A stretch of DNA of 64,000 bases. It comes from Escherichia phage PSD2002. Numbering within the stretch: the stretch's first letter is position 1; each line of letters opens with the position of its first letter. The notes below the pieces were generated by a model. It made no database searches and was not told the DNA's origin. It saw only the letters and a list, made by a program, of their open reading frames with translations. The position numbers were made by a program, and so were the translations under genes. Shown here piece after piece: positions 1,820 through 16,916 of the stretch. Location: sequence record OK335775.1. One strand, written 5' to 3'.

Positions 1820-2141
1820 TTTATCTGATTTAGATAATTTTGTTAAAGATGCTGAAGAGGGCCCTAGTGACCCTCGTTATTATGAGAAATCATTAGATAT
1901 AATCCGTAAGTCAATGGGTTCTGTTAAGCAGGAAATTATGCTTACTTTACCCGATGGCACTGCTCACATCGTTTATGTGATGAATATTGTTATTGAGAAA
2001 GATGGAAAAGTGTCGGTTGATTTCGGAACACCTTCCGAAGACCGAAAAGAAGAGCTAGCGCTTCATGTAGAAAAATGTGTTACAATGCAAATACAAGAAG
2101 AACTGGATAAAATTAAATCTAAGAGGTGGTGGAAGTGGTAG
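1812..2141 (+). CDS. 40: Gene 40 head vertex assembly protein
   Basis: 109-aa ORF between uvsX and gene 41, overlapping both; assigned by position and size (T4 gp40 is of similar size). Confidence 0.65.
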   Translation: MTDLSDLDNFVKDAEEGPSDPRYYEKSLDIIRKSMGSVKQEIMLTLPDGTAHIVYVMNIVIEKDGKVSVDFGTPSEDRKEELALHVEKCVTMQIQEELDKIKSKRWWKW

Positions 2142-3565
2142 AAACTATTTTGGCTCAACTGCTAGGCAATAGTGATTATTTCACTAAGGTCTGGCCTTAT
2201 ATGAATGATTCTTATTTTGACCAGGGTCCTGCAAAGACCCTTTTCAAAGAAATTAAAAAACACGTCAATGAATATAATGCAGTGCCTTCTAAGAATGCAT
2301 TAAGCATTGCATTAGATAACAGTACGCTTTCAGAAGTTGAACATCAAGGCGCTAAAGAGCTTTTAAGTTCGCTGAACGCCGGGCCTGAAGACCAAGAATG
2401 GTTGGTTAAAGAGACGGAGAAATACGTTCAGAAAGCAGCGATGTATAATGCAACTTCAAAAATCATTGAAATCCAAACTAATGCCGACCTTCCGGTTGAG
2501 CAACAAAATAGAAAACTTCCAGGTATTGGTGCTATTCCAGATATCATGCGTGATGCATTATCGATTTGTTTCGATTCTGAATTAGGTCATGACTGGATGG
2601 ATGACTATGAAGAACGATTCAAAAGTTATTCCGATAAAGCACGTAAGGTTCCGTTCCGTCTTAATATTCTGAATAAGATTACTAAAGGTGGTGCCGAGTT
2701 TGGTACTGAAAACGTATTGTTGGCAGGAACAAACGTAGGTAAGTCTCTCGGTCTTTGTTCATTGGCTGCTGATTATCTTCAATCTGGTTACGATGTTCTT
2801 TATATCTCCATGGAGATGGCAGAGGAAGTATGTGCTAAGCGTATCGATGCCAACCTTCTGGATGTATCACTGGATGATATCGATGATGGCCACGTCTCGT
2901 GGCCTGAATATAAAGCTAAGATGGATAAATGGCGTTCAACTGCTACTTTAGGTCGTTTAAAGATTAAACAGTATCCTACTGGCGGTGCTAATGCCGATAC
3001 ATTCCGTGCATTATTAAACGAATACAAGCTCAAACAAAACTTTGTCCCACAGGTCGTTATCGTTGACTACTTGGCTATCTGTGCATCGTCTCGTACGAAA
3101 GTTTTCTCTGAAAACAGTTACGGATTGATTAAGATGGTTGCTGAAGAACTACGTGGACTTGCAGTAGAGAAGAAATTACTGTTGTGGACTGCAGCCCAGA
3201 CTACTCGTGGTGCGAACGTTGCAGCCGAAATCGATATGGCCGATATTGCTGAATCCTTTGGTATTGCACATACTGCAGACTTCATGTTGGGTGTGGTCGA
3301 GACAGAAGAGTTCGCTCAGATGGGTATGCAGATGGTTAAGCAGCTTAAATCTCGTTATGGCGATAAGAGCTACTACAACAAATTTAAGATTGGCGTTAAG
3401 AAAGGAAATCAACGTTGGTACGAAGTTGAAGATGATTCCAACCCAGGCCCAGTGAACACTGTTCGTGAGGCTACAGGTGAGATGAATCGCCAGGCCGAGG
3501 TCAATCGACAGACGCGTGTTAATAGAAGTGATTTGGACGATTTAGCAGCATCTATCAAATTTTAA
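2126..3565 (+). CDS. 41: Gp41 replicative DNA helicase (DnaB-like)
   Basis: 479 aa; Walker A GTNVGKS, DnaB-family architecture, N-terminal similarity to T4 gp41; position after 40. Confidence 0.95.
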   Translation: MVEVVETILAQLLGNSDYFTKVWPYMNDSYFDQGPAKTLFKEIKKHVNEYNAVPSKNALSIALDNSTLSEVEHQGAKELLSSLNAGPEDQEWLVKETEKYVQKAAMYNATSKIIEIQTNADLPVEQQNRKLPGIGAIPDIMRDALSICFDSELGHDWMDDYEERFKSYSDKARKVPFRLNILNKITKGGAEFGTENVLLAGTNVGKSLGLCSLAADYLQSGYDVLYISMEMAEEVCAKRIDANLLDVSLDDIDDGHVSWPEYKAKMDKWRSTATLGRLKIKQYPTGGANADTFRALLNEYKLKQNFVPQVVIVDYLAICASSRTKVFSENSYGLIKMVAEELRGLAVEKKLLLWTAAQTTRGANVAAEIDMADIAESFGIAHTADFMLGVVETEEFAQMGMQMVKQLKSRYGDKSYYNKFKIGVKKGNQRWYEVEDDSNPGPVNTVREATGEMNRQAEVNRQTRVNRSDLDDLAASIKF

Positions 3566-3591
3566 GGAGCTTCGGCTCCTTTTTTGTTTTT
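3566..3591 (+). terminator. Rho-independent terminator after gene 41
   Basis: GGAGC-TTCG-GCTCC hairpin followed by TTTTTTGTTTTT; immediately followed by an early promoter. Confidence 0.7.
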
Positions 3592-3595
3592 AAGG

Positions 3596-3624
3596 GTTTA
3601 CATCTCCTGTAGGCGTGATACTAT
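3596..3624 (+). promoter_or_regulatory. T-even early promoter (GTTTAC-N17-TACTAT)
   Basis: Match to the T4 early promoter consensus with sigma70-like spacing. Confidence 0.6.
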
Positions 3625-3648
3625 AGACCTATCAACTTGGAGAACAAA

Positions 3649-3966
3649 ATGAAAACCATCGACTGTAAAGCAGAATATAAAGTGTATTACCATGGAAGTT
3701 GTAGTGTCGCTAATATCGGTAATATGCTTTGTCCTCCTGAGGAAACAGGAGTTCTGTCTGAAACCGGTCGTAAGAAAAACCTAAATCGTGTGTTCTTTAC
3801 TGAAGATATCGGTTTGGCTAAGATTTATGCCGGACGTGCAGCTCGTTCAGTGGGAGGAGAACCCCGTCTTTATCGTGTAATTGCTCCGGTGGATGTGGTT
3901 TGTTTAAATGATACTAAAGGCGCTACGGTTTATCATGCTGAATGGGCCTTCTGCGAGGAAATCTAA
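3649..3966 (+). CDS. Hypothetical protein, possible minimal ART-like fold
   Basis: ATG at 3649 preceded by GGAGAA; ORF track start at 3637 is a TTG inside the 5' UTR. Contains YYHGS ... KIYAG ... EWAFCEE. Own early promoter upstream. Confidence 0.5.
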   Translation: MKTIDCKAEYKVYYHGSCSVANIGNMLCPPEETGVLSETGRKKNLNRVFFTEDIGLAKIYAGRAARSVGGEPRLYRVIAPVDVVCLNDTKGATVYHAEWAFCEEI

Positions 3967-4161
3967 ATGTCTGAATCAATTAAAGTAAAATTTGTCGGCC
4001 ATTTCGCCAACGGTGATACCGCTACCAAAGAAGCTTCAGTGCGTGAAAACGATATCGTGTGGGTGACTACCCAATTCGCTGAAGTAAATAATATTTTGGT
4101 TAAGGCGTATGTCGACGACGTAGAAGTTTATGAACATGATGCCCGTATTGAGGAAATCTAA
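3967..4161 (+). CDS. dmd: Candidate Dmd (discriminator of mRNA degradation; antitoxin against RnlA/LsoA)
   Basis: 64-aa ORF in the 41-61 interval where T4 encodes dmd; pattern VKVKFVGHF...WVTTQFAEVNNILVKAY resembles the remembered T4 Dmd sequence. Not verifiable without alignment. Confidence 0.4.
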   Translation: MSESIKVKFVGHFANGDTATKEASVRENDIVWVTTQFAEVNNILVKAYVDDVEVYEHDARIEEI

Positions 4162-4302
4162 ATGGAAGAATTTGAATGTGTAGTATGTGGTTGTTCGGTC
4201 TGTGAAGACCAGGCAGTATTTGATGCTTGGGACAACGCAACCTGTTTAGACTGTGACAGCGAATTCGAAGAAATTGCTCATAAACATGAAGGCGAGGAAT
4301 AA
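4162..4302 (+). CDS. Small Cys-rich (zinc-ribbon-like) protein
   Basis: 46-aa ORF with SD GAGGAA, fills the gap between neighbours; CVVCGC...C...CLDC cysteine pattern. Confidence 0.35.
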   Translation: MEEFECVVCGCSVCEDQAVFDAWDNATCLDCDSEFEEIAHKHEGEE

Positions 4303-4542
4303 ATGAATATCGTACTAATGAAACCAACTCCTAGCTCTTTTTGGAATAAATCTTTCGGTAAGCATAATATGTTTATCCAACGTACCGTAAACAACTGGGA
4401 ACTAGTTCTTTCAGTGGGCCACAACGATTATGAACAAGAATACGTAGAGTTCTTCGAATTTCCTGTGAAGCCCACTAAGCGTCAGATTCGTCAGACAAAA
4501 CGTAAATTCCGTAAAATTTCTTTGGAAGATTCATTAAAATAA
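4303..4542 (+). CDS. Hypothetical small protein with basic C-terminal tail
   Basis: 79 aa; SD GGCGAGGAA upstream; C-terminal PTKRQIRQTKRKFRK motif shared with ORF 5330..5551. Confidence 0.45.
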   Translation: MNIVLMKPTPSSFWNKSFGKHNMFIQRTVNNWELVLSVGHNDYEQEYVEFFEFPVKPTKRQIRQTKRKFRKISLEDSLK

Positions 4543-4543
4543 A

Positions 4544-4573
4544 GTTTACAACGGTCTATGGTAGTGATACTAT
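4544..4573 (+). promoter_or_regulatory. Early promoter upstream of spackle-like gene
   Basis: GTTTAC -35 and TACTAT -10. Confidence 0.55.
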
Positions 4574-4601
4574 GGACCTATCAACTAACGAGGAGATTGA
4601 A

Positions 4602-4895
4602 ATGAAAAAGTTATTAATCGCAGCAATTCTTACCGTAGCATCATGTGGCACAGCTCCGGTAACTGCCGGATTGGATAAAGACCTTTGTGAATGGTCTATG
4701 ACTGCAGACCAAGAATCAGTCGAACATCAGATTTATGCTGATATCATGAACATCACTAAACGTGACCGCCCTGATATGGTTAAAGAAGTGTCAGACCAAT
4801 TGGCTTCAGGTGGTGTTATGCAATATAACTATGTTTTGTATTGTGATGCCAATTTCGATAACAAAAATATCGTTAAAGAGGTGACAGGTGAATAA
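4602..4895 (+). CDS. sp: Spackle-like periplasmic protein (superinfection exclusion; inhibitor of gp5 lysozyme)
   Basis: 97 aa from ATG 4602 (SD AGGAG at 4591); N-terminal signal peptide MKKLLIAAILTVASCG; conserved DKDLCEWSMTADQ and GGVMQYNYVLYCD resemble T4 Sp as recalled; located in the 61.x cluster. Confidence 0.6.
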   Translation: MKKLLIAAILTVASCGTAPVTAGLDKDLCEWSMTADQESVEHQIYADIMNITKRDRPDMVKEVSDQLASGGVMQYNYVLYCDANFDNKNIVKEVTGE

Positions 4896-5328
4896 GATTA
4901 ACAGAAATTTAGTTATCAAAAAACTTTGTTGTAAAAATCCAAATGCACAAGCATACAGGATGTTTTGGAGCGACGACCACCAATACCTAGGTTATTTTCT
5001 TGTTGATAGCGATGATCGAATTACAATGGCTCATAAACTTCTTAACAGAGAATTAAACCATTGGCAAGAACTTATTGCGGTGAGGTCTAAATTATTTTCT
5101 CGCAATACAATGCACCAATTGGTTTATTTTTTCGCCGAAGGTATTCCTGACAAGGTTGAGTTTGATGGATTCGAATTTAAAGACATCCTCCCAGACAACG
5201 AATTGAACGACCGCGTTAATATGGACATCCCTAGCAAGTATATCAAAAACAGTCTGTTGAAAATTCTGGAAGCTCCGGTTTATTCAATAGATGACCAGAT
5301 TTTTAATGCCTTTATGAATCGAGGTTAA
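4888..5328 (+). CDS. Hypothetical protein
   Basis: 146-aa ORF beginning at GTG 4888 (start uncertain), SD AAGAGG upstream; no similarity recognised. Confidence 0.45.
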   Translation: MNKINRNLVIKKLCCKNPNAQAYRMFWSDDHQYLGYFLVDSDDRITMAHKLLNRELNHWQELIAVRSKLFSRNTMHQLVYFFAEGIPDKVEFDGFEFKDILPDNELNDRVNMDIPSKYIKNSLLKILEAPVYSIDDQIFNAFMNRG

Positions 5329-5329
5329 T

Positions 5330-5551
5330 ATGTTTGTCTTAACTCAATTCTCTAAAGCGGTGTATAGTTACTCTTGTCAGTGGGAAGTCTTTATCGATTC
5401 TCCTTCACCTAAGTACGGTGTTTTTGGTCGAGTAACTACTCAAGCTTATGTTGCACGGCCAACTAAGCGCCAGCTTCGTAAACTTAAAAAGGCCCATCGC
5501 CAACTGATTGAGAGAAGGGAACAATATGAGTGCAATGTGTACGGGCTCTAA
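5330..5551 (+). CDS. Hypothetical small protein with basic C-terminal tail
   Basis: 73 aa; PTKRQLRKLKK motif paralogous to the tail of ORF 4303..4542. Confidence 0.45.
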   Translation: MFVLTQFSKAVYSYSCQWEVFIDSPSPKYGVFGRVTTQAYVARPTKRQLRKLKKAHRQLIERREQYECNVYGL

Positions 5552-5717
5552 GATTTCTGTATTCGAATTATTCGAAGAGTATGAAATCGTATCAAAGGAC
5601 CAAGAAGCTATCCATATTATTGCCGGTGATGGTGTGACTTGGATTATCCCACTGTATCATGAAGATACCTATGAAGTCACTGATGCGAATGGTGATAAAG
5701 CTATTTTCGTAATATAA
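5526..5717 (+). CDS. Hypothetical small protein
   Basis: ATG at 5526 after GAAGGG; ORF track begins at TTG 5508. Overlaps the end of the preceding ORF. Confidence 0.35.
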   Translation: MSAMCTGSKISVFELFEEYEIVSKDQEAIHIIAGDGVTWIIPLYHEDTYEVTDANGDKAIFVI

Positions 5718-5720: not shown

Positions 5721-5734
5721 AGGCCAGGAGCCTA

Positions 5735-5895
5735 TGAAATCTTTTAAAGAAGTTATGAACGAAGATATGGTCGCAGGCGATGCAGGTGGTAACCCATCTA
5801 ATATTGCCTCCGGAACTACCTCAGGCGCAGTCGTCAATAAAGGGCCTGAACAAATCCCATCTAAAAAGCGTAAAGAAAAATCCGAAAACGAATGA
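5735..5895 (+). CDS. Hypothetical small protein, possibly late-expressed
   Basis: 53-aa ORF below the ORF-track cutoff; SD AGGAG at 5725 and TATAAATA at 5713-5720 directly upstream. Confidence 0.35.
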
Positions 5896-5933: not shown

Positions 5934-6962
5934 ATGTCATATGTCGATAGAGAATTTGCTGTACGTGCCTTGAATTACCAACCTAAATTCAGACAAGTAA
6001 CTGGTAGTGATTTTAAATTAAACTGTCGTTGTCGTGTATGTGGCGACTCCCAAAAAGATGAGAACAAAGCTCGTTTTTGGGCCTATCCGGCTAATGATGG
6101 CTCCGTAATGCTGCACTGTTTTAACTGCGACTATTCAGCAGGAATTAAGAAGTATCTATACGAATATGAGCCGGATTTATATCGAGAATATATTCTTGAG
6201 AAACATAAAGAGCAATCGTTCGGGAGACAAGCTGCACCTAAGGTGGAGATATCTGAAAAAATTAAAGCTAAGATGCCTGTCATCGAAAAGCTTAATTTCT
6301 GTGAACGATTAGATAGAATGCCGAAGGACCATCCTATTATCAAATATGTAACACTACGTTGCATTCCTGAAAACAAATGGAATCGCTTATGGTTTACTAA
6401 AGAATGGCCGGCATTGGTGAACTCTGTCAATCCAGGGACCTATTCTAAAGAAATGCCTGAGCCTCGTTTGGTTATTCCAATTTTCAATAAGAATAAACAA
6501 ATTGAAAGTTTTCAGGGTCGAGCCTTACGTAAAGATGCTCCACAAAAGTATATTACAATAAAAGCTCATGACCAAGCTACAAAAATATATGGAATGGATA
6601 CAGTTGACGAACGTCAGTTGGTGTGGGTAATGGAAGGTCCTATTGATTCATTATTCGTACCTAATGCAATAGCAATTACTGGCGGGTCGTTGGACTTGGC
6701 TATGGTTCCGTGCAAAGAAACTAGGGTTTGGGCCCTTGATAGCGAAAGCCGCCACCCAGATACTATTTCAAGAATGAAAAAGCTTATCGAGGCTGGTGAA
6801 AAAGTAGTGTTTTGGGATAAGGTCCCTTGGCCTTCTAAAGATATTAACGATATGATTAGAAAAGACGGGGCGTCGCCGGAAGCAATACTAGAATATATGA
6901 AAAGTAATTACAGTCAAGGATTAATGGCTAAATTGAGATTACAACGGTATGCTAAAATATGA
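5934..6962 (+). CDS. 61: Gp61 DNA primase
   Basis: 342 aa; N-terminal zinc-binding CRCRVCGD...CFNC and Toprim-like core; matches T4 gp61 in size and sequence as recalled. Confidence 0.95.
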   Translation: MSYVDREFAVRALNYQPKFRQVTGSDFKLNCRCRVCGDSQKDENKARFWAYPANDGSVMLHCFNCDYSAGIKKYLYEYEPDLYREYILEKHKEQSFGRQAAPKVEISEKIKAKMPVIEKLNFCERLDRMPKDHPIIKYVTLRCIPENKWNRLWFTKEWPALVNSVNPGTYSKEMPEPRLVIPIFNKNKQIESFQGRALRKDAPQKYITIKAHDQATKIYGMDTVDERQLVWVMEGPIDSLFVPNAIAITGGSLDLAMVPCKETRVWALDSESRHPDTISRMKKLIEAGEKVVFWDKVPWPSKDINDMIRKDGASPEAILEYMKSNYSQGLMAKLRLQRYAKI

Positions 6963-15236: not shown

Positions 15237-15746
15237 ATGAAAATTTATCGAGTGGAGTCATCGTTCAGTATCTTAGATAACAGCGATGTTATAGCAATCA
15301 CTCACCAACAGTGCCGCCAATTAACACCGTATAGAGGCTCGTTTGATGAATGGAGCGAAGGTTGGTTATTAGAAGTAGGTTTCGACAAACCTAATTTTAG
15401 ACACCACCATACCAATAATAAAAATATTCCGCTACCAGGTCAAGACAAGTTGTTGGTGGAAAATTCTAATAAAAGCATTAGAACTAAGTGGAACCAGCCT
15501 GATTATGAAGGCTGTGATGATTGTATTCCAGGTTGGTTTGTTAATCTCTACCATTTTGCTTTTGCCAGCGAGTATGATATGATGCGCTGGTTCACTCGTG
15601 AAGAGCGTGAAGAATTATCTTCTAAAGGATTCTATCTTGCTGTTTACGAAATCCCTGAAGATGAGGTTGTCATTGGTAGCCGTCAATTAATGTTCCGCAA
15701 ATCCTATGCCGAACTCGTAGATTTTATTGAAATGAGAAAATTATGA
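15237..15746 (+). CDS. Hypothetical protein
   Basis: ATG 15237 after GAGGAG; early promoter 15181-15209 with flanking inverted repeat. Confidence 0.45.
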   Translation: MKIYRVESSFSILDNSDVIAITHQQCRQLTPYRGSFDEWSEGWLLEVGFDKPNFRHHHTNNKNIPLPGQDKLLVENSNKSIRTKWNQPDYEGCDDCIPGWFVNLYHFAFASEYDMMRWFTREEREELSSKGFYLAVYEIPEDEVVIGSRQLMFRKSYAELVDFIEMRKL

Positions 15747-16291
15747 AATTTAATTATAACCCTGAATATACACCAAATCCTGCAGCTAAACTGATTGATT
15801 TTGATGTTTTAAGCACTTATGTATGCCCTGTTAAACCACTGGAAATTAAGGAAACCACTATGACTACTCAGACTATCGAAATCGGCAAAACCTACAAACT
15901 GGTTGAACCTGAAATTAAAACTAAGGCCTTGATTTCCGGCCATAAAACCCTGACTGATGTTTTTGGTGAAGGCGAATTTATTGTTGAAGAATTTGCCAAA
16001 AGTGAGTGGTTCTCTAAAGCCTATATTCTCCACGGCCGTCGTTTAGACAATAACAAAATTGAGCAAACCCTGGTTTATGAAGATGAGTTCATCCTGTTCC
16101 AAGAAGTTGAAGAACAAGACCCTACCGACCTTCTGTGTGCTGCTGTGTCTATCCGTCGTCCTTTTGATAATCCTATCTGTGGTTGGGTAACAGACCAGTG
16201 GGTTGAAGACGGTGTTGAGCTGCTGAACGTTGTACATGCTGGTGATTTTAGCGTAGTACCTCGTAGTGCAGTGGTTAATGTATTGAATTAG
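15743..16291 (+). CDS. Hypothetical protein, paralog family A
   Basis: 182 aa; C-terminal block TDQWVEDGVELLNVVHAGDFSVVP shared with ORF 16365..16916. Confidence 0.5.
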   Translation: MKFNYNPEYTPNPAAKLIDFDVLSTYVCPVKPLEIKETTMTTQTIEIGKTYKLVEPEIKTKALISGHKTLTDVFGEGEFIVEEFAKSEWFSKAYILHGRRLDNNKIEQTLVYEDEFILFQEVEEQDPTDLLCAAVSIRRPFDNPICGWVTDQWVEDGVELLNVVHAGDFSVVPRSAVVNVLN

Positions 16292-16364: not shown

Positions 16365-16916
16365 ATGATTACTATCGGTGAAATTGTTCGTGTATCCAAA
16401 GAATCTCGCTCAAAAGCCGCAGGTCGTTTTGTTGAAGTTGCTGGTATTCGTACTAATTTAGTAGGTGGAATTAAAGAAGTTAAAGTGCGTATTATTCCTA
16501 AAAATGGCCAGACTGAAACTCAATTCGCTTATGTGCATCCTAAATTCCTGGAATCAACTGAATTCACTGGACACATCGCTCCTGTAGTTGAAGAAGTTGA
16601 ATCCCATGATGGGTATGTATGTGAAAGCAATGATATCCGTGGCGTAGTAGCTCAAGACGTTGAAACTATTGACCAATCTCATGTTGGTGTTGATTTCAAA
16701 TGGAAATTAGGTAAAGGTGTCTTTTTCGTTTCACCTAAACCGTTTGAATACAATTGCAAGTATGGTCCGACTTATGAAACCACTAGTATGTCCGGTTACA
16801 TCACAGACCAATGGGTTGAAGAAGGTGTTAAGCTGTATAACATCGTGTTCCTTGGCACCTTTAAAGTAGTTCCTGAAAGTTTTATTGTTGAGTACGCTGA
16901 TATTCATTTTGCATAA
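16365..16916 (+). CDS. Hypothetical protein, paralog family A
   Basis: 183 aa; C-terminal block TDQWVEEGVKLYNIVFLGTFKVVP. Confidence 0.5.
   Translation: MITIGEIVRVSKESRSKAAGRFVEVAGIRTNLVGGIKEVKVRIIPKNGQTETQFAYVHPKFLESTEFTGHIAPVVEEVESHDGYVCESNDIRGVVAQDVETIDQSHVGVDFKWKLGKGVFFVSPKPFEYNCKYGPTYETTSMSGYITDQWVEEGVKLYNIVFLGTFKVVPESFIVEYADIHFA

Follow-up and report, generated by a model that had tools for sequence, protein, structure and literature searches.

Two diverged TifA-family (DUF7279) genes in the 41–61 cluster of Escherichia phage PSD2002

Two small basic proteins encoded between genes 41 and 61 of Escherichia phage PSD2002 (sequence record OK335775.1) belong, with near certainty, to the TifA family (Pfam DUF7279, PF23945), and, judged from their sequences, they are paralogous over a domain of ~50 residues rather than over a basic tail alone. 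The window, as we call the whole 64,000-nt stretch that was analyzed, comes from a T-even Dhakavirus. We regard the two proteins, termed here ORF A and ORF B, as very probably diverged TifA paralogs of the class of ~9-kDa early T-even proteins, in which an RNA-binding helix is combined with a sheet and loop directed against host RNase toxins. ORF A is the positional ortholog of T4 tifA (gene 61.4), and ORF B represents a second paralog, of older origin. Publications of 2022–2023 had already described the motif, the family, and the mechanism, and the locus holds no new kind of element.

Two genes with a common small domain

Both reading frames were found exactly where the earlier note had placed them, quoted peptides included, and both are genuine genes, as their dN/dS values (0.05–0.32) and strong Shine–Dalgarno sites attest. 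Against orthologs, dN/dS is 0.06–0.32 for ORF A and 0.05–0.19 for ORF B; the Shine–Dalgarno sequences (GAGGA at 4294–4298 and GAGG at 5321–5324, respectively) lie 4–5 nt upstream of the ATG. Each start codon abuts the stop codon of the preceding gene, and at its 3′ end ORF B overlaps the next gene by its last 26 nt (Table 1). The encoded proteins, with an overall pI of ~9.9, are 100% identical to their counterparts in Shigella phage PSD9, and hundreds of phage genomes contain orthologs. Conservation within each type is tight in the C-terminal two-thirds and looser in the N-terminal strand region, which drifts.

Table 1. Features of the 41–61 region of the window, with the evidence for each
Feature	Position	Strand	Evidence or remark
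Gene 41 (helicase)	2126–3565		
Terminator-like hairpin and T-run directly after gene 41	3564–3581	+	7-bp stem with 4 G-C pairs, tail TTTTTGTTTTT
Early-type promoter-like site P1, TTTACA-16-TGATACTAT, extended -10	3597–3624	+	Consensus match only
phrog_2110 gene	3649–3966	same strand	
dmd, antitoxin against RnlA/LsoA	3967–4161	+	Pfam PF17587, E = 1.5e-16; phrog_2102; annotated dmd in IME08 and JS98
46-aa Cys-rich ORF	4162–4302	same strand	
ORF A, positional ortholog of tifA (T4 gene 61.4), JS98 type	4303–4542	+	79 aa
ORF A Pro-Thr cap (P57 T58) and predicted basic helix (residues 59–78)	4471–4536	+	Motif scan, AF2
Early-type promoter-like site P2, second copy, TTTACA-17-TGATACTAT type, extended -10	4545–4573	+	Consensus match only
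sp (spackle), between the two paralogs	4602–4895	+	PF25676, E = 1.1e-42
146-aa gene in the position of T4 adfA (61.2)	4888–5328	+	phrog_8539, E = 5e-93
ORF B, second TifA-family paralog, vB_EcoM_005 type	5330–5551	+	73 aa
ORF B Pro-Thr cap (P44 T45) and predicted basic helix (residues 46–61)	5459–5512	+	Motif scan, AF2
63-aa ORF	5526–5717	same strand	
61.1	5734–5895	same strand	
Gene 61 (primase)	5934–6962		

The pair had been singled out for a conserved basic motif, PTKRQ(I/L)R..K, said to form the tail of two proteins with unrelated N-terminal parts. PTKRQ(I/L)R with a K/R-rich run after it is indeed common to both (VKPTKRQIRQTKRKFRK, residues 55–71 of ORF A; ARPTKRQLRKLKKAHRQ, residues 42–58 of ORF B), and a six-frame scan of the whole 64-kb window for P[TS][KR][KR]Q[ILVM]R returned only 4471–4491 and 5459–5479. 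The run is not terminal, however, with 8 more residues to follow in ORF A and 15 more in ORF B, and the N-terminal parts proved to be related. The same Pfam domain, DUF7279, spans residues 23–71 of ORF A (68.7 bits, E = 3.9e-19) and residues 9–59 of ORF B (68.6 bits, E = 4.5e-19; gathering score 24.5), an invariant Trp-Glu strand is common to both proteins (W32 in ORF A, W18 in ORF B), and the predicted structural elements follow one another in the same order. What was described as a tail is predicted to form the C-terminal helix of a single small domain that ORF A and ORF B share.

Membership in the TifA family is supported by several further searches. An HMM built from the TifA proteins of T4, T6, and RB69 only, whose activity has been validated experimentally, and thus containing neither ORF, was run on 1246 six-frame segments of the window; its sole matches were ORF A (E = 3.9e-15) and ORF B (E = 1.4e-9), and no further copy of the family was found in the 64-kb window by six-frame regular expression or by two HMMs. 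In pairwise alignment with T4 TifA (gp61.4), ORF A shows 47% identity over 73 aligned residues (E = 2e-16) and ORF B 34% identity over 62 aa (E = 1.7e-11). The two match the related PHROGs 2375 and 3272, each cross-matching the family of the other, and the ORF A ortholog is annotated gp61.4 in JS98 and IME08. An exhaustive profile search of 1.8 billion sequences yielded 34 clusters at E ≤ 1e-3, a small number that is due in part to the low scores of short proteins against a database of that size, and a word-indexed protein search returned close relatives only. NCBIfam holds no model for ORF A, ORF B, or their neighbors.

The shared heptamer corresponds to P53-T54-K55-R56-Q57-I58-R59 of T4 TifA. 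All five positions mutated in the literature are kept in both proteins (P57, T58, K59, R60, and R63 in ORF A; P44, T45, K46, R47, and R50 in ORF B). Across 36 family representatives, the second-strand Trp, the Thr, and the residue equivalent to R59 are invariant, with the Pro and Gln nearly so. The pattern PT[KR][KR]Q[ILVM]R is present in 29 of these 36 sequences.

Models of both proteins were predicted by AF2 with 10 sequences as input. In ORF A, strands are placed at residues 2–6, 32–40, and 44–53 and a helix at 59–78, with a modest mean pLDDT of 69 and values of 86–88 in the blocks of residues 51–70. In ORF B, strands are placed at residues 2–9, 16–23, and 39–41 and a helix at 46–61, with a low mean pLDDT of 59 and values of 70–72 in the helix blocks. 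The predicted order is strand–strand–loop–strand–helix in both, the helix beginning right after Pro-Thr and carrying 8 K/R (ORF A) or 7 K/R (ORF B) in its first 16 residues. At this modest to low confidence, the topology agrees with the published prediction for TifA, a three-stranded sheet with a ~20-residue loop packed on a C-terminal helix (PMC10853763, Guegler et al. 2023 NAR). The ORF A model resembles the BFVD model of VR7-type TifA (TM 0.77) and the BFVD model D7RM43, which represents the IME08 ortholog of ORF B (probability 1.00, rmsd 1.9 Å over 49 columns). A Foldseek search of the PDB with the models had no match at E < 4, and a profile search of PDB sequences had none at E ≤ 1.

Gene neighborhood and relatives

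ORF A and dmd belong to one operon, in which a 46-aa ORF separates dmd from ORF A downstream, an arrangement much like that in T4, where tifA adjoins dmd. ORF B lies 0.8 kb further on in the same 41–61 cluster, not adjacent to dmd. The earlier note described the two as flanking a spackle-like gene; ORF A does abut spackle, but a 146-aa gene intervenes between spackle and ORF B. This gene sits where T4 has adfA. Only its last 14 residues resemble AdfA (PF23813, E = 0.007, below the cutoff).

The ORF A operon is flanked by a 23-nt direct repeat (3615–3637 and 4564–4586, 96% identical). P1 would drive an operon comprising orf3649, dmd, orf4162, and ORF A, and transcription from P2 would cover sp, orf4888, ORF B, and the genes beyond. 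From these consensus promoter-like sites, we infer early expression of both operons; in T4, an early promoter drives expression of the dmd–tifA pair (PMC9391042, Srikant et al. 2022 eLife).

In the 41–61 region, the window shares 98.7% identity with Escherichia phage vB_EcoM_FB and 91–98% with QL01, WG01, IME08, and JS98. Family copies were counted in related genomes within ±4 kb of the gene. The ORF A and ORF B types occur together in the Dhakaviruses JS98, IME08, QL01, vB_EcoM_005, IME341, and VR5; two relatives (IME281 and one IMG/VR genome) combine the B type with a 98-aa VR7-type copy; and the B type alone is found in VR26, one further genome, and one metagenomic relative. One copy is present within this distance in T4, RB69, and the Kanagawavirus CIP9; T4 and RB69 carry one copy in the cluster against two in PSD2002. 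Single-protein scans of IMG/VR yielded nine isolate genomes per protein, a small census.

The two slots differ in their constancy. Every relative whose locus extended over the B slot, immediately upstream of the phrog_3249 gene, 61.1, and 61, has a gene there. In close relatives, the dmd-proximal slot holds a JS98-type copy, a VR7-type copy, or none, and so represents a variable cassette site. This pattern of one slot always occupied and another swapped or empty offers a concrete lead to the targets of those TifA homologs that do not inhibit ToxN. A recent tandem duplication was considered as the origin of the pair and rejected: DNA similarity between the paralogs is limited to a 22-nt stretch at the motif (86% identity), and ORF A and ORF B are each closer to T4 TifA than to one another.

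A third DUF7279 gene resides in the part of the PSD9 genome that lies outside the window. It encodes 61 aa, among them TRPTKKMIRQFKRLHR (PF23945, 59 bits), and adjoins pin. This pin-adjacent copy is found in 340 phage records, including many Tequatroviruses, but the pin region of T4 GT7 lacks it. A single Dhakavirus genome can thus hold three family members, and what have been published as homologs from different phages are in fact co-resident paralogs. A word search of the main texts of PMC9391042 and PMC10853763 found neither "paralog" nor "two copies".

Probable RNA binding and possible host targets

[quoted passage not shown] The C-terminal helix of TifA is solvent-exposed, with a conserved Pro-Thr cap and a conserved basic cluster, and RB69 TifA binds RNA with a KD of 0.36–2.3 μM; binding to RNA, and in vitro to DNA, shows no evident sequence specificity (PMC10853763). 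The substitutions P53A/T54A and K55A/R56A/R59A in T4/RB69 TifA abolish RNA co-purification, neutralization of ToxN, and co-immunoprecipitation of ToxN alike (PMC10853763). The ToxN–TifA complex co-purifies with 16S rRNA, ToxN being trapped with TifA on RNA (PMC10853763), and F41 of T4 TifA tunes the affinity for ToxN. The literature search found no newer mechanistic work on T4-type TifA, and the term "DUF7279" returned no papers.

By analogy with these proteins, ORF A and ORF B likely bind RNA through the basic helix. The earlier suggestion that such tails typify nucleic-acid- or ribosome-binding peptides was therefore right by homology to the RNA-binding helix of TifA and incomplete rather than wrong, as the known role of the family is counter-defense against a toxin–antitoxin RNase and not a general ribosomal function. 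In the mechanism that we propose, transcription of the two operons would start from the two early-type promoter-like sites after injection. The N-terminal part of each protein would fold into a small three-stranded β-sheet with a variable loop, and the C-terminal part into a Lys/Arg-studded α-helix N-capped by Pro-Thr, with PTKRQ(I/L)R as the start of the helix. The helix, as in T4 and RB69 TifA, would bind abundant RNA with little sequence specificity, and the sheet and loop would recognize a particular host RNase toxin. Held inactive in an RNA–protein complex on an abundant RNA, for example 16S rRNA, the toxin would leave phage transcripts intact.

Published assays bear directly on the toxin partner. 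Only the proteins of T2, T4, T6, and RB69 neutralized ToxN (main text of PMC10853763), and the additional TifA homologs cloned in that study included tifA_JS98 and tifA_vB_EcoM_005 (Supplementary Table S2). According to the JS98 genome sequence, the former and ORF A have different residues at 3 of 79 positions (96% identity); for the latter and ORF B this holds at 2 of 73 (97% identity). Neither rescued cells from any of the seven toxins in the screen, namely the ToxN homologs of E. coli, Pectobacterium, Klebsiella, Shigella, Vibrio, and Serratia, and TenpN (PMC10853763). Expression was verified for two of the non-neutralizing homologs, one of which was the vB_EcoM_005 protein, and this was well expressed (PMC10853763). 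Since orthologs of both types failed against all seven toxins, the name-giving inhibition of ToxN is unsupported for either type, while family membership holds for both. That ORF A and ORF B act as inhibitors of some other host RNase toxin or defense effector is suggested by analogy with the family, a plausible role that we assign tentatively.

The same failures lend some weight to an alternative in which both proteins are general RNA-binding or ribosome-associated factors (RNA chaperones, mRNA protectors, or translation modulators) that have no specific toxin partner, ToxN inhibition being a specialization of the T4/RB69 branch. This reading would also accommodate the nonspecific binding of TifA to RNA and, in vitro, DNA, and the observation that the RNA-binding helix is the only element conserved across the family. 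We consider it unlikely, given that both genes lie in a dmd-bearing accessory cluster, the T4 version of which also includes adfA and has been described as an "anti-TA island" (PMC9391042), and that the content of the dmd-proximal slot varies among close relatives, as is typical of arms-race cargo and not of housekeeping genes. Moreover, each type has its own conserved version of the variable loop, which suggests partner-specific recognition.

The loops themselves are unlike: that of ORF A, SVGHNDYEQEY, is shorter and acidic, and that of ORF B reads DSPSPKYGVFGRV. With the same helix but unlike loops, different host targets for ORF A and ORF B are favored and are the most likely arrangement. 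Different targets for the two copies would widen the range of hosts that can be infected. Redundancy, with both copies doing the same job against the same target for a gene-dosage effect as in the dmd–tifA amplification of T4, is very improbable. Dosage does matter in T4, which overcomes plasmid-borne toxIN by amplifying tifA (PMC9391042), and the direct repeat around the ORF A operon would fit such a history. However, outside the helix the two proteins are only ~20–30% identical, each resembles T4 TifA more than it does its paralog, purifying selection acts on each type separately, and the genes occupy distinct, non-tandem slots with different neighbors. Low identity, separate selection, and distinct slots point to an old divergence and not to a recent dosage duplication.

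Chance resemblance between unrelated small basic ORFs with low-complexity K/R tails, or the possibility that one ORF is not a gene, can be practically dismissed: sharing of 6 of 7 residues in a heptamer is common in the window (75 ORF pairs versus 46 ± 8 in residue shuffles of 106 non-overlapping ORFs) and pairwise BLASTP of ORF A with ORF B aligns only 20 residues (E = 1e-4 for this single comparison), but the independent PF23945 matches (E ~4e-19 each, ~50 residues), the TifA HMM that finds both ORFs and nothing else in the window, and the dN/dS of 0.05–0.32, with orthologs in hundreds of phage genomes, refute it. The short motif alone, without the profiles, is not beyond chance, and the significance of the homology comes from the profile matches.

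Returning to diverged paralogs with separate targets, a broader formulation is possible, if speculative: DUF7279 may be a modular "RNA-tethered inhibitor" platform kept by T-even phages in several diverged copies, of which the present Dhakavirus lineage would carry three (dmd-adjacent, 61.1/61-adjacent, and pin-adjacent), with the same helix and different heads against different RNases or effectors, none of them a tested ToxN. Were this so, the published negative results for the JS98 and vB_EcoM_005 types would reflect targets outside the panel and not inactive proteins.

Likenesses to known systems and annotation

With T4-type TifA, ORF A and ORF B have in common the Pfam family, size class, Pro-Thr cap, K-R-x-x-R helix residues, and location in the 41–61 accessory cluster; the sheet-plus-helix fold predicted for them at modest to low confidence would be a further likeness. 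ORF A departs from T4 TifA in that its N-terminal segment is longer and its loop differs. The loop of ORF B preserves an FGRV element like that of T4 TifA, to which F41 of the T4 protein belongs. Its gene sits in another slot, just upstream of 61.1/61, and the protein shares a C-terminal C-N-V-Y-G-L tail with Kanagawavirus-type homologs. In activity, T4-type TifA neutralizes ToxN, whereas the orthologs of ORF A and ORF B did not.

Arginine-rich-motif peptides such as lambda N and HIV Tat/Rev, the class implied by the earlier note, also bind RNA through a short K/R-rich helical segment. They show no homology to the present proteins, in which the basic helix belongs to a folded domain of ~50 residues with a conserved Trp-containing sheet. 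The helix of the TifA family, furthermore, tethers a partner protein to RNA, and its binding is reported to be largely sequence-nonspecific. Dmd (T4 61.5) is likewise a small early protein from the same operon with a counter-defense role against a host RNase toxin. It belongs to an unrelated family (PF17587) and inhibits by direct protein–protein contact with no need for RNA binding (family literature via PMC9391042).

For annotation, the assignment has practical value: public records list these genes as "hypothetical protein" or, wrongly, as "DNA polymerase" or "nucleotidyltransferase", where TifA-family (DUF7279) RNA-binding protein would be appropriate. The name itself calls for care, as the "tifA" of an enterococcal phage (type IV restriction inhibiting factor A, PMC11322646) is likewise a small anti-defense protein but a different one, with a different target.

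The dmd operon, its repeats and its cassette slot

The operon that runs from orf3649 through dmd and orf4162 to ORF A is bracketed by two copies of a 23-nt direct repeat, which is part of an early-promoter-like/5′-leader sequence. In T4, dmd-tifA is flanked by short repeats, and recombination there yields segmental amplifications that overcome toxIN (PMC9391042). By analogy, the repeat in PSD2002 could permit T4-like amplification of the dmd-tifA segment.

Whereas dmd and tifA of T4 have no gene between them, dmd and ORF A are separated here by the gene for a small protein with two CxxC pairs. A second dmd-like gene occupies the slot downstream of dmd in some relatives, replacing or accompanying the TifA-type gene (the annotation of fDHCT2 names dmd_1 and dmd_2), a further sign of the variability of this cassette site. 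The first gene of the operon bears a weak, sub-threshold resemblance to the rifampin ADP-ribosyltransferase family Arr-ms (PF12120), scoring 15 bits where 25 are required (E 0.029), which serves as a lead only.

Coordinates of the features discussed (L014 and L016, loci from related phage genomes; L029, a locus of Shigella phage PSD9 outside the window)
Feature	Location	Strand	Family or content
Direct repeat, 23 nt, 96% identical	window 3615-3637 and 4564-4586
First gene of dmd operon	window 3649-3966	+	phrog_2110, RB69 orf040c-like
46-aa protein	window 4162-4302	+	phrog_13952; CVVCGCSVC ... CLDC
146-aa gene	window 4888-5328	+	phrog_8539
Gene following ORF B	window 5526-5717		phrog_3249
motB-like paralogs, ~182 aa, neighbouring	window 15743-16291 and 16365-16916	+	Pfam motB
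Second dmd-like gene, 113 aa	L014:2510-2848, L016:2211-2549		contains ALVEAFVDDKLIH
Third DUF7279/TifA-family paralog, 61 aa	PSD9 MZ561532.1 97095-97277 = L029:20093-20278	-	PF23945, 59 bits

The adfA position and the end of ORF B

The position held in T4 and RB69 by adfA (61.2, anti-DarT factor) is taken here by the 146-aa gene, whose product resembles AdfA only over the C-terminal ~14 residues, with a sub-cutoff match to PF23813 (E 0.007). This gene may represent a cassette with an exchanged N-terminal domain. ORF B overlaps the gene that follows it by 26 nt (window 5526-5551). The overlapped C-terminal residues, …ECNVYGL, conform to a terminal pattern, C-[DN]-x-[IVY]-x-G-L, common to ORF B and its B-type relatives, such as that of Kanagawavirus CIP9 (…HCDIIGL).

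Paralogs elsewhere and public annotation

The third TifA-family paralog, from PSD9 of the same phage lineage, contains VWKLLIKGSPTDQFMATCVGLYTRPTKKMIRQFKRLHR and adjoins pin, the Lon protease inhibitor gene, outside the window. Orthologs are present in 340 records from phages, among them many Tequatroviruses, in which they share ~78% identity and lie between pin and gene 49; the region scanned in T4 GT7 lacks a pin-adjacent TifA-family paralog. Within the window, the two motB-like (modifier of transcription) paralogs match the Pfam family with E 8e-9 and 1e-51, respectively, and share the peptide TDQWVE[DE]GV.

The TifA name has not been taken up in GenBank records of ORF A and ORF B orthologs, most of which read "hypothetical protein". 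A-type orthologs are labelled "DNA polymerase" in Yersinia phage vB_YenM_P8 and Salmonella phage SHP1, B-type orthologs are labelled "nucleotidyltransferase" in vB_EcoM_005, AnYang, IME540, and UPEC01, and the "gp61.4" label of VR7 sits on the B-type protein.
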